The notes: generated by a model from the letters alone, not told the origin. Counted from the first letter of the stretch, positions 16,044 through 51,029 are shown. The stretch is DNA of 64,000 nt from Candidatus Woesearchaeota archaeon (GCA_003599055.1 QZIM01000002.1:517-64516), one strand, 5' to 3'. Translations and numbers: made by a program.

Positions 16044-16814
16044 CTAGCACTGTGCCCAGGCCTTGAGCCGGCCGAGTTCTATTGCGCCAAAGAGGCGTTC
16101 TCCGTCTCCGCGAACCCACGTTGGGTATCCCTTGATTCCTGCATCTTTGCACGCCTGGACTTGCTCATTGGGGTTGCTTGGGAGTGCGCATTCGACGTAA
16201 TTGAGAGAGTCAAATGCTGCGCCGAACAGGTTTTTTTGTTCTTTGCAGTGCGGGCACCAGAATGCGCCGTACATCGTGACGTTTTTTTCAGTGAGGCATT
16301 TGGCAAGCGCAAGGGTTGTGGGGTCGGGTGTTGCCTGTACTGCGACAAGGAAGGGGACAAAGAAGAGTGCTGCGGCAACCGCGCCGGTTTTGGCAGCCCA
16401 GTTTTTGCGCTCACCAAAGAGCGAGTATGCGGCAACGAAAAAGACGCCGAGCATAAGCGCGTGGCTCATTTCGCACCAAAAGCAGATGTTTTCAAGCCGT
16501 ACGAGCATAATCGCGTTAAAGTAGCCTGCAGCGGCAACGCCGAGCGCGGACAATCCTAACATCGGCCAAAGTGACCGCGCAGCGCGGTAGTGCTGGATGG
16601 CAAAATAGAGGAGCAAAACCCAAACAATGAATCCGAGGAGTGCGACGGGTGCGGGCCCGAGTTTGGCGTAGGTGCTTGTGGTTGCTATGGCGCACCCGCT
16701 GGCACCGAAGATAGGGCAGACCGGGTCAACGCCGCGCAGGTGTGTGATGGTCAGATAGAGCGTGATGAGTTTTCCCGCCAAAGCCATTCCGATGAGGGTG
16801 AGTTTTCGCTTCAT
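16044..16814 (-). CDS. vitamin K epoxide reductase (VKOR) fused to a thioredoxin-like domain
   Basis: 256 aa with 4-5 TM helices, loop cysteines CPIFGASGC and a TM CxxC (CFWC). The C-terminal Trx-like part carries WCPHC. Confidence 0.8.
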   Translation of the reverse strand: MKRKLTLIGMALAGKLITLYLTITHLRGVDPVCPIFGASGCAIATTSTYAKLGPAPVALLGFIVWVLLLYFAIQHYRAARSLWPMLGLSALGVAAAGYFNAIMLVRLENICFWCEMSHALMLGVFFVAAYSLFGERKNWAAKTGAVAAALFFVPFLVAVQATPDPTTLALAKCLTEKNVTMYGAFWCPHCKEQKNLFGAAFDSLNYVECALPSNPNEQVQACKDAGIKGYPTWVRGDGERLFGAIELGRLKAWAQC

Positions 16815-47969: not shown

Positions 47970-48896
47970 CTATCTGCCTTTCTTCTTTTTCTGTTTCTTG
48001 AGCTCTTTGTCAAGTTTCAGGCGGTCGAGAAGTTCCTTGTAGCGGTTTCTAATCGTGACTTCAGTGACGCCTGCAACATCGGCAACTTCGCGCTGGGTTC
48101 TTTTCTCGCCGTGCATTAACGCGGCAACGTAAAGTGCTGCTGCGGCAATGCCGGTGGGTCCTCTGCCTGATGTTAATTCTTCCTGCTGTGCGCTCTCCAA
48201 AATTTCAACTGCTTTGGACTGCGTTTCCGCTGCAAGCTTCAAAGATGATGCAAAGCGTGCAATGTAGTCTGCCGGGTTTGAGGGCAAAATAGTTATGCCG
48301 AGCTCGCGCGTGACAAATCTGTACGTGCGTCCAATCTCTTTCTTTTCAATAGATGAAGCCTCGCTCAATTCATCAAGTGTTCTGGGCACTTCGTGGCGCC
48401 TGCACGCGGCGTAAAGCGCGCCGGAAACGACTGATTCCATGCTGCGCCCGCGGACAAGGCCGCGCTGGACTGCCTGCGTGTAAATCATTGCTGCTTCTTC
48501 TTCAACCATCTTTGGTAGCTTCAAAAAGCTGGATACTCTTTTCAATTCCGCAAGCGCAAGCTTCAAATTGCGCTCAATTGCCGTGCTGATGCGGTATTGC
48601 CATTTTCTGAGCCGAAAGAACTTGTTTCTGTCTTTGCCGCCGAGCTGGAAGAGGTCTGCTTTCTGGCCGACTTCTGTTCCAAGACCCTGGTCGAATTGGG
48701 TGTAGGTCATCGGGGCGCCTGTTCTGCGCCTGCTCTCTTCGCCGCCGTCGTCTTCAAATTCGCGCCATTCCTGGCCGAACTCAACGAGTTTTTCTTCTAC
48801 GACGAGCCCGCATTCTTTGCAGATGATTTCGCCCTTTTCACGGTTGATGAAAAGATTTTGACTTCCGCATTCGTTGCATTTGCCGGTATTGTACAT
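47970..48896 (-). CDS. tfb: transcription initiation factor IIB
   Basis: Start at ATG 48896. Zinc ribbon CNECG-x15-CKECG, B-linker, two cyclin folds, and a K-rich tail. Confidence 0.93.
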   Translation of the reverse strand: MYNTGKCNECGSQNLFINREKGEIICKECGLVVEEKLVEFGQEWREFEDDGGEESRRRTGAPMTYTQFDQGLGTEVGQKADLFQLGGKDRNKFFRLRKWQYRISTAIERNLKLALAELKRVSSFLKLPKMVEEEAAMIYTQAVQRGLVRGRSMESVVSGALYAACRRHEVPRTLDELSEASSIEKKEIGRTYRFVTRELGITILPSNPADYIARFASSLKLAAETQSKAVEILESAQQEELTSGRGPTGIAAAALYVAALMHGEKRTQREVADVAGVTEVTIRNRYKELLDRLKLDKELKKQKKKKGR

Positions 48897-49028
48897 ACGT
48901 TGCCACCCGCCCCAAAAACAGCCACCATCCTTCGCAAGAACGAAGGAATCTATATGTTTGAGGAGCAATATATTTATATACTGGTATTAAGAACTAATAT
49001 ATAAAGTTTTCTCTTCTCGTGCATATGT

Positions 49029-49304
49029 TTAGCACGGTCCTTGGCTGAATACGGGGTGGAACGGCGTGCTCCGCTCGCTGCAAAGGGCTGAACAATCCGC
49101 CGATGTCAAATCAACCGCTAATTTTGACGCCGGAACGACAAAAGGGTTGTTTTCTTCCGAACAGCAGCAAAAGCCAAGTGATTCTGCCTCTATTGGTGTT
49201 TGAGCAATGGCTCTTCCGGTTCCCCGGTACAGGAAGAAAAGTCCGGCAAGTGCCACAAGTACTACGATTACCAAAATAAGGTTGCTTAAATGGTCATTCT
49301 TCAT
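49029..49304 (-). CDS. CCC-motif small membrane-anchored protein, paralogue 3
   Basis: ATG 49304 (MKNDHLSNLILVIVVLVALAG...). Cys pattern FCCCSE-x21-CSALC-x15-C. ATGA overlap with paralogue 2. Confidence 0.55.
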   Translation of the reverse strand: MKNDHLSNLILVIVVLVALAGLFFLYRGTGRAIAQTPIEAESLGFCCCSEENNPFVVPASKLAVDLTSADCSALCSERSTPFHPVFSQGPC

Positions 49305-49723
49305 GAGACGTCTATCCAGCGGCATCGGCCGGTGTTGAGGAGCCGGGCTCCTCCTTTTGCGCATCCTTCTTCGCAGCGGGTTGCATAAACGATTTCTGTT
49401 GCGCCGATAGGAACATCGACATAAATGCCGTATTTGCTGAACCTGCCTTCTCCGGGGAGGTCGCAGCAGCACTGTCTTTTTTCAGGGATTTGGAGTGTGA
49501 AACTCGGGCAGGGGCAGTTTTCTTCGCCTTTCGGGCAGTTTTCTTTTTGCCATTGAAGGCACGAATAGCTGCGCAGGCCCTCAATGCTTTTCCCGTAGGT
49601 TTGCTGCACTTGATAAATATAATAGAACGCTGCGGATGCGAGGAGTACTGCAATGATGAAGCCGGCTACAGCGAGCCGTTCGTTGTGAATGTCGTGTTTT
49701 GGCTTTTGTTTTGTTTTTTTCAT
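49301..49723 (-). CDS. CCC-motif small membrane-anchored protein, paralogue 2
   Basis: 140 aa with a TM anchor and an extra CxxxxxxC.CPC region. Cys pattern QCCCD-x28-CEEGC-x12-C. ATGA overlap with paralogue 1. Confidence 0.6.
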   Translation of the reverse strand: MKKTKQKPKHDIHNERLAVAGFIIAVLLASAAFYYIYQVQQTYGKSIEGLRSYSCLQWQKENCPKGEENCPCPSFTLQIPEKRQCCCDLPGEGRFSKYGIYVDVPIGATEIVYATRCEEGCAKGGARLLNTGRCRWIDVS

Positions 49724-49992
49724 GGGTTCTCATTGCAAAGGCCCTGTTGGGGGAATACTGCGCCTTCGGAAGAGTAGCGCGTGCACGCTTCTTCGCAGTT
49801 TGCGGCATAGGTTTGGATTTGTGAGCGGACCAGCGTTCGTTCGCCGAACCGGTCTCCTGCAAGGATGTTGCAGCAGCAGGACTGGTACGGCTGGACCGCA
49901 GCGCCGGCAAGGGAGTCGCTGACTGCAACGTACCCTGCGAATGCGAGCGCGGTAATAAGAAAGACTCCAAGGACTGCGTGTGTTTCGTTCAT
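49720..49992 (-). CDS. CCC-motif small membrane-anchored protein, paralogue 1
   Basis: 90 aa with a TM anchor. Cys pattern SCCCN-x23-CEEAC-x15-C. Confidence 0.6.
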   Translation of the reverse strand: MNETHAVLGVFLITALAFAGYVAVSDSLAGAAVQPYQSCCCNILAGDRFGERTLVRSQIQTYAANCEEACTRYSSEGAVFPQQGLCNENP

Positions 49993-50089
49993 AAGGAGGG
50001 TGAGTTTTTTGGGTTATTTAAGGTGTTGGTATATACATTACGGCATCGGAAATGAAAAGCCACAAATAGGGCAGGCACAGGGGAATCGT

Positions 50090-50597: not shown

Positions 50598-51029
50598 TTA
50601 GTCGCCGCTGCTGTCAGAATATCCGTCGGGCAGGTTTGTCGCATCGCCGTCTTGGTCGTGGTATCTTGGGCCAAAGTCGTCTTGTGCTTCGACATTGGGG
50701 TCGTAGACTTCCTGTGAGAAGAGTGCGCGGGTTTTTGCCTTAAGGGCTTCTTTGCCGGTGGCGTCAGTGGTGATGGGCGGATAGAACGTTCCTGATTTTG
50801 GCCCGTCTCCCGCGGAAGTGACGGTCTCCGTTGTTTTGAATTCAGCGAGCGCTTCTGCGGCTGTTTTTCCGGTATCTCCTGTTTCAGCAGAGGCCGTGTC
50901 AGAAACGACTGCGGCGGTGATTCCGCTGCTGCCTGTTTCGGGAATTGCGACGCGTTTGCCGACAGTCTTACTTTCACAGGCCGCAAGAAGTAAGACGCTT
51001 AAGAGTGCAATAATCACCAGTTTTCGCAT
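50598..51029 (-). CDS. small acidic lipoprotein
   Basis: Lipobox LLAAC. T/E/D/G-rich mature part. Confidence 0.55.
   Translation of the reverse strand: MRKLVIIALLSVLLLAACESKTVGKRVAIPETGSSGITAAVVSDTASAETGDTGKTAAEALAEFKTTETVTSAGDGPKSGTFYPPITTDATGKEALKAKTRALFSQEVYDPNVEAQDDFGPRYHDQDGDATNLPDGYSDSSGD

Follow-up and report, generated by a model that had tools for sequence, protein, structure and literature searches.

Three small genes follow one another on the minus strand of the window, by which we mean the whole 64,000-nucleotide stretch of Candidatus Woesearchaeota DNA that was analysed: gene A (49720-49992, an open reading frame of 90 amino acids), gene B (49301-49723, 140 amino acids) and gene C (49029-49304, 91 amino acids). 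They are joined by ATGA overlaps of stop and start codons, between A and B at 49720-49723 and between B and C at 49301-49304, which we read directly in the minus-strand sequence and which the sequence-only reading of this locus had already pointed out. For gene C, a mechanical list of open reading frames sets the start at a GTG at 49472, and the homologues place it at the ATG at 49304. All three genes are gene-called in public sources, with no name attached. In relatives, the junctions within the triad range from -19 to +12 nt (at A/B, the genes overlap by 4 or 19 nt or lie 12 nt apart), and the best reading of this arrangement is that A, B and C form one translationally coupled operon.

The three products share a common layout, in which a short polar N-terminus is followed by a hydrophobic stretch of 19-22 residues, a conserved Gly-x-(Ala/Ser/Thr) and then the cysteine signature CCC-x(22-29)-CxxxC-x(12-15)-C. 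Protein A consists of an acidic N-terminus of five residues, a hydrophobic helix (residues 4-30) and a six-cysteine ectodomain (residues 37-86), and protein C of a basic, histidine-bearing N-terminus, a hydrophobic helix, a GTGRA motif and a six-cysteine ectodomain that ends on its last cysteine. Protein B carries a Lys-rich N-terminus, a hydrophobic helix (residues 13-44), a conserved juxtamembrane helix (residues 47-62), a four-cysteine insert (residues 55-72) and the CCC/CxxxC/C domain (residues 80-134). Read from the individual sequences, the signature is CCC-x24-CEEAC-x15-C in A, CCC-x29-CEEGC-x12-C in B and CCC-x22-CSALC-x15-C in C, which confirms its presence in all three proteins. The additional Cys-rich insert that had been reported in the middle paralogue is also there, as four extra cysteines (C55, C63, C70 and C72, spaced C-x7-C-x6-CPC) between the membrane helix and the CCC domain of B, so that A, B and C hold 6, 10 and 6 cysteines in total. 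A loose version of the signature is matched by 7 of the 9421 open frames of at least 60 amino acids in the genome, and three of the seven are the adjacent genes of the triad, which argues that the signature is not there by chance. One match to the loose CCC..CxxxC..C pattern falls outside the window, in an open frame of 1700 amino acids with 82 cysteines (contig C5:31133-36235); this frame is no relative of the triad and probably encodes a giant Cys-rich surface protein of the sort that this lineage typically has. Within the family, all six signature cysteines are present in 45 of 48 members; two distant members lack both the middle cysteine of the triplet and the last cysteine, and one lacks the middle cysteine alone. 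The total is an even number (6, 8 or 10) in 47 of the 49 distinct family sequences tabulated, the exceptions being P0018 with five cysteines and P0019 with seven.

Pairwise blastp among the three proteins gives weak results (A/B 4e-4, A/C 0.085, B/C no match). Comparison of the family profiles with hhalign relates A to C (95.6 %, E 1e-8) and B to C (97.3 %, E 2e-11), in alignments that span the helix and run through the CCC and CxxxC motifs to the last cysteine. By profile-profile comparison, A, B and C are thus true paralogues, as the sequence-only reading had maintained and as the blastp value for A/B also indicates. When the three genes are compared with orthologues from the same and from another genus, pN is 0.17-0.41 against a largely saturated pS of 0.60-1.0 (for gene A alone, 0.19-0.34 against 0.60-0.97), and a pN so far below the saturated pS is the pattern of genes under purifying selection. 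That these might be spurious open reading frames with no protein product could be argued from the fact that the homologues, too, are without any name. We give this next to no chance, in view of conserved homologues across about nine genera in which synonymous change is saturated and non-synonymous change constrained, of the invariant motifs, of the conserved promoter block and of the confident AlphaFold2 (AF2) models; distribution, synteny and pN/pS together rule it out.

The source genome measures 1.15 Mb, and the related contigs come from metagenome-assembled genomes (MAGs) that bear the label Candidatus Woesearchaeota or Nanoarchaeia and in several cases originate from groundwater. With the profile of A, the gene was found in 22 of 77 genomes from the GTDB family of the source genome, representing about 9 of 29 genera, and in none of about 220 genomes of the order's other families. 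When 1.8 billion cluster representatives were searched exhaustively by HMM, 20 matched, corresponding to about 18 genuine clusters; two long A-profile matches, P0023 and P0024, were discarded as repeat artefacts without the cysteine signature. Scans of A, B and C against Pfam, NCBIfam, PHROGs and PADLOC gave sub-threshold noise only, and a sequence-profile search of the PDB found no relative, its best match, rhodniin at E 3.3, being a chance one. Foldseek searches with the models of A and B against the PDB reached E values of 0.39 and 0.64 at best, and those with A against BFVD 0.09, with no defensin as a best match in either database; these values are to be read with the low power of Foldseek for domains of about 50 amino acids in mind, and the models searched included the membrane helix. 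A literature search found no description of the family. The proteins had not been recognised from their sequence, and no library that we tried has changed this; judging by these searches, the triad is a genuine orphan family confined to one clade of Woesearchaeota.

The three subunits differ in how freely they vary. Gene A encodes the most conserved paralogue, with homologues that are 42-96 % identical and with invariant positions both in the ectodomain (CCC, R56-S-Q-x-Q60, C66xxxC70, F80, G84 and C86) and in or beside the helix (A6, G9 and G30). Protein C shows moderate conservation, exists in a short and a long form, and is found at full length by its profile only in triad-bearing genomes. 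The most variable subunit is B, in which conservation is centred on the N-terminal half, that is, the helix and the motif YG(K/R)T(I/V)EG, with invariant residues A18, F22, A29, A32 and Y34 in or beside the helix. Its ectodomain is of at least three types (a CCC type, a GCC type with four cysteines and a multi-Cys type of 160 amino acids), and types I and II are matched by hhalign at 99.5 % over their N-terminal 95 columns. Among relatives, B of type I is always paired with the short C, and B of type II with the long C. Such pairing fits a complex whose parts co-evolve, but shared ancestry accounts for it equally well.

In all 22 triad-bearing genomes, from about nine genera, the order A-B-C upstream of tfb is constant, with a divergent gene for an rlmH-like SPOUT methyltransferase flanking the triad on one side and tfb on the other. 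The tfb gene (transcription factor B; 47970-48893, minus strand), assigned by the Pfam domains TFIIB and Zn_Ribbon_TF, lies downstream of the triad, and the adjacency of the two, for which the sequence-only reading had suggested a check in relatives, is seen in every triad-bearing relative examined. A functional link between the triad and tfb was considered and rejected: tfb has an AT-rich upstream region of its own (48894-49028), and unrelated genes occupy the position before it in 16 triad-negative genera, which argues that the adjacency is inherited synteny of a sub-clade. The tfb gene is context, outside the triad operon. Sixteen other genera of the family have a tfb 84-90 % identical to the one beside the triad, and many family genomes possess a second tfb paralogue, just 37-48 % identical.

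On the other side, upstream of A, a TATA-like box (CTTAAATAA; 50014-50022, minus strand) is kept in 8 genomes of 6 genera and would be the promoter of the triad operon; its distance of about 22-30 nt from the ATG of A suggests that the operon mRNA is leaderless or near-leaderless. Just upstream of the box, the alignment reveals a block (50031-50043, minus strand) whose consensus, CGTAC(T/A)GTACAT, forms a GTAC-N-GTAC palindrome and is conserved in six genera; the copy in the window, CGTAATGTATAT, is degenerate. The conserved promoter block upstream of A in six genera reads CGTAC(T/A)GTACATACAAACA-CTTAAATA, and it sits in a 100-nt region that is common to A and the divergent rlmH-like gene. The GTAC-N-GTAC block is a candidate for an operator common to both. 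Further upstream, a 143-amino-acid protein with a lipobox (LLAAC), encoded at 50598-51029 on the minus strand, is conserved next to rlmH in relatives, and in a triad-negative genus a homologue (L047:622-1137) adjoins genes for small six-cysteine proteins.

The first 35 positions of the C profile match many small proteins of related genera, down to E 2e-9. In the genome under study, this N-terminal module is carried solely by the triad and by one clear and one weak open reading frame on other contigs, and the idea that it is a general signal peptide of the organism was dropped for this reason. Outside the window, in a stretch of the same genome (contig C4:41650-42700; L058:650-1699), three adjacent genes encode proteins of 103, 131 and 90 amino acids, each with a hydrophobic helix at the N-terminus, then TG(K/H)x, and with four cysteines; apart from the triad, no other genes of this genome clearly encode a triad-like N-terminus. 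Related genera hold tandem clusters of 5-12 small genes of 75-180 amino acids (loci L047-L053, for example L048:1-4294 and L050:1-4652), whose products share the N-terminal helix M(E/N)(E/K)K..(A/S)L.ILGI(I/V)AVIA(I/L)VGL(V/I)LLF...TG.A and have mutually unrelated ectodomains, often with 4 or 6 cysteines. Some of their leaders, such as MNKKG|SIALVILG, resemble class III (prepilin) signals, and the cluster proteins have no match in Pfam or NCBIfam.

We predicted the structures of A and B with AF2, using the family alignments. The model of A has a pLDDT of 79 overall and of 84-90 in the ectodomain, with low confidence in the linker (residues 26-32), and consists of a helix (4-30), two strands (37-46 and 52-61), a second helix (66-76) and a third strand (77-83). 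In the model of B (pLDDT 70.6), the membrane helix (13-44) and the juxtamembrane helix (47-62) are followed by a unit made of strands 80-88 and 97-105, helix 110-123 and strand 127-131. The two models agree on a strand-strand-helix-strand mini-domain, whose first strand bears the Cys triplet and whose helix bears CxxxC. As residues i and i+2 lie on one face of a strand, and residues i and i+4 on one face of a helix, the outer two cysteines of the triplet can pair with those of CxxxC, and the same strand geometry directs the middle cysteine away from CxxxC. The joint loss of the middle and the last cysteine in two family members lends modest support to a disulfide between these two.

Are disulfides to be expected outside the membrane of this organism? 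Among its exported proteins, taken as those with one N-terminal hydrophobic segment, even cysteine counts outnumber odd ones 96:32 (75 %), against 333:352 (49 %) for its cytoplasmic proteins, both sets resting on crude gene calls, and the cysteine content of the proteins with a single N-terminal segment is the higher one, at 2.2 % against 1.4 %. The even-Cys bias of exported proteins, a classic mark of such bonds, indicates that extracytoplasmic disulfides are made, and on this compositional evidence this DPANN archaeon depends heavily on them. The window does encode a VKOR-Trx fusion, as had been claimed (16044-16814, minus strand; Pfam VKOR E 2e-16, with a C-terminal WCPHC motif read directly), but the link to the triad that this implied is not borne out. 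The gene lies 33 kb from the triad, VKOR occurs in 6 of the 22 triad-bearing genomes (27 %) against 19 of the 55 without the triad (35 %), and in one genus, 13 of 15 genomes carry the triad and none carries VKOR. This phyletic pattern rules out VKOR as a dedicated partner of the triad, and the DsbA-like family PF13462 was rejected as a partner as well, since its phyletic pattern does not track the triad. Nine of the 22 triad-bearing genomes, several of which are 98-100 % complete, have neither VKOR nor PF13462 (Thioredoxin_4/DsbA-like), so that catalysed disulfide formation is not assured everywhere; in these genomes, either oxidation is uncatalysed or proceeds through another factor, or the thiols serve another role.

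Those nine genomes count in favour of a different chemistry, in which the cysteines are reduced thiolate ligands and the tetrad of CxC and CxxxC, with or without the other two cysteines, binds a metal ion or cluster (Zn, Cu or Fe) at the membrane surface. The predicted convergence of four cysteines between strand 1 and the helix fits this as well, as do the groundwater recorded as the origin of related MAGs, groundwater being often anoxic, and the Cys triplet itself, which is typical of metal-thiolate proteins. We hold metal binding to be quite improbable, given the even-Cys mark of disulfide formation on the exported proteins of this genome, the even counts in 47 of 49 family sequences with the extra cysteines of B coming in pairs, the joint disappearance of the middle and last cysteines in two members, the behaviour expected of cysteines that are bonded to each other, and the lack of conserved His, Asp or Met co-ligands; moreover, strand-borne CxC paired with helix-borne CxxxC makes a classic double-disulfide staple (PMC5234102). 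Of the two possibilities offered by the sequence-only reading, a disulfide-knotted or a metal-binding mini-domain, the former is plausible, with its mostly even cysteine counts, the CxC strand and CxxxC helix of the AF2 models and the even-Cys bias of exported proteins. The fate of the hydrophobic segment is a separate matter. The N-termini of B and C, rich in Lys, Arg and His, place this end inside by the positive-inside rule; that of A is acidic, so that its topology rests on homology to C. Directly after the helix, the residues at the putative -3 to -1 positions are GAA in A, GKS or GRT in B and GRA or GKA in C, and a conserved G-x-(A/S/T) at this place in each protein conforms to the -3/-1 rule for signal peptidase I, which would allow the ectodomains to be released. 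Class I (Sec) signals are marked by a basic n-region, an h-region of about 7-15 residues and small residues at -3 and -1; of the three proteins, B and C have a basic n-region and A an acidic one. On this reading, the hydrophobic segments would be such signals, and cleavage would set free three secreted peptides, soluble, rich in disulfides and about 55-95 amino acids long, which could act as defensin-like antimicrobial, signalling or matrix peptides. Besides the small -3/-1 residues found in all three families, release would suit the low AF2 confidence in linker 26-32 of A and a domain size, six cysteines and a CxC/CxxxC pairing that recall secreted cystine-stabilised peptides (PMC5234102). 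We nevertheless find secretion rather unlikely, since hydrophobic stretches of 19-22 residues within predicted helices of 27-32 have a length typical of anchors, the helices contain invariant residues that would be unusual in a disposable signal peptide, the N-terminal region of A is acidic and not basic, and the strong conservation of A (including RSQIQT) at a fixed chromosomal position is less what one expects of a fast-evolving toxin than of a structural component.

Another form of processing would make the triad a set of type IV pilin-like subunits, with class III signals trimmed by a prepilin peptidase and the hydrophobic helix mediating assembly into a short fibre or pseudopilus with disulfide-stapled heads. 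Class III signals have a hydrophilic leader that ends in Gly (Ala in some archaea), usually after Lys or Arg, and that is followed by a hydrophobic tract (PMC4471445). The short hydrophilic leader, about 21 hydrophobic residues and small beta-rich head of the triad proteins have this shape (PMC4471445); in A, the residue Ala6 ahead of the helix never varies, nor does a Gly three residues further on, the prepilin peptidase family PF01478 is encoded in 73 of the 77 genomes of the family, and the N-terminal part of the C profile also matches the tandem small proteins, some of which have KG|S or RG|I leaders. Set against this, the residue before Ala6 is Lys or Arg in a minority of A proteins and mostly His, Asn, Tyr or Gln; B and C have no leader ending in Gly or Ala; and no pilin or archaellin HMM of Pfam or NCBIfam is matched at E values up to 1. 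The conserved small-x-small motif after the hydrophobic tract is absent from class III signals (PMC4471445), the AF2 helix stops at the Gly of this motif and does not pack on the head, and the only T2SSE ATPase of the genome is encoded on another contig. No A24 peptidase (PF01478) was found in this MAG, which is 88.7 % complete. Taken together, we regard pilin-like assembly as distinctly unlikely.

The reading that we prefer, and to which we assign a probability of roughly one half, is that the triad forms a membrane-anchored, disulfide-stapled, heteromeric A/B/C complex at the cell surface. A, B and C would span the membrane once as bitopic proteins, N-terminus cytoplasmic and C-terminus external, their hydrophobic helix being retained as an anchor, and each would present on the outer face of the membrane a strand-strand-helix-strand mini-domain of about 50 residues. 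Three predicted disulfides would staple this domain: the first and third cysteines of the triplet, on strand 1, would bond to the two cysteines of CxxxC on one face of the helix, and the middle one, pointing the other way, to the C-terminal cysteine. The subunits would be produced in fixed proportion and then assemble through their conserved transmembrane helices and their ectodomains, with A as the constant core and B as the variable, possibly partner-recognising subunit. The idea of a hetero-oligomer comes from the coupling of the genes and from their co-inheritance, and shared descent could account for both. The surface complex as such may have a role in envelope structure or in contact with other cells. 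A doubtful, more specific proposal is that the triad is the structural core of an as yet undescribed, lineage-specific surface device, a heterotrimer of anchored mini-proteins with a new cystine-stapled fold that amounts to a cysteine-stabilised alpha/beta (CS-alpha-beta) staple in reverse, built with a Cys triplet. In it, the hyper-conserved A would nucleate assembly through its RSQIQT face, and the rapidly diversifying B, with its three or more ectodomain types, would recognise a host or partner cell.

The DPANN archaea, Woesearchaeota among them, are uncultured organisms of tiny genome size that are believed to rely on contact with other cells; to our knowledge, their envelope proteins are almost entirely uncharacterised. 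With 90-140 amino acids, a clear signature and a confidently predicted fold, the triad is a compact experimental target, and it offers a test case for disulfide-stabilised surface structures in such archaea, including those without any known disulfide oxidase in their genomes. Should the staple be confirmed, it would be a new arrangement among the few cystine-stabilised mini-folds, and apparently the first to be anchored in an archaeal membrane; if the proteins are merely structural filler, the triad would be a clade marker of modest interest.

Among known systems, the small CS-alpha-beta proteins offer the nearest point of comparison in concept. Defensins and scorpion toxins of this class have the cysteine framework C...CxxxC...C...CxC (PMC5234102). 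Like them, the triad domain is a small alpha+beta unit of about 50 amino acids with six cysteines, in which, by prediction, a helical CxxxC lies opposite a strand-borne CxC (PMC5234102). Unlike in the CS-alpha-beta defensins, the order is reversed, with CxC before CxxxC, and the x of CxC is itself a cysteine. Where defensins run (strand)-helix-strand-strand and carry CxC on the C-terminal sheet, the triad is predicted to run strand-strand-helix-strand with the triplet on its first strand; it is also archaeal, predicted to be membrane-anchored and encoded by three coupled paralogues. We take the likeness to the CS-alpha-beta staple as a working analogy, not as membership. The motif order of the triad, CxC and then CxxxC, is that of apamin and of the endothelin/sarafotoxin type, which are free peptides of 18-21 amino acids, have two disulfides and separate the motifs by about 7 residues. 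The triad differs from these by a spacing of 19-31 residues that holds a beta-hairpin, by a predicted third disulfide and by its membrane helix. With archaeal type IV pilins, the triad has in common a short leader, about 21 hydrophobic residues, a small head and several paralogues per operon (PMC4471445), and pilin heads often carry a stapling disulfide comparable to the staple predicted here; unlike pilins, it lacks the [KR][GA] leader, has small-x-small after the helix and is not linked to a pilus ATPase. Finally, the triad resembles the unnamed small surface proteins of Woesearchaeota (90-180 amino acids), which share the N-terminal helix followed by TG-x-A, often have 4 or 6 cysteines and are encoded by tandem genes, and which differ from the triad in that their ectodomains are unrelated, do not have the CCC-CxxxC-C signature and are encoded at other loci.
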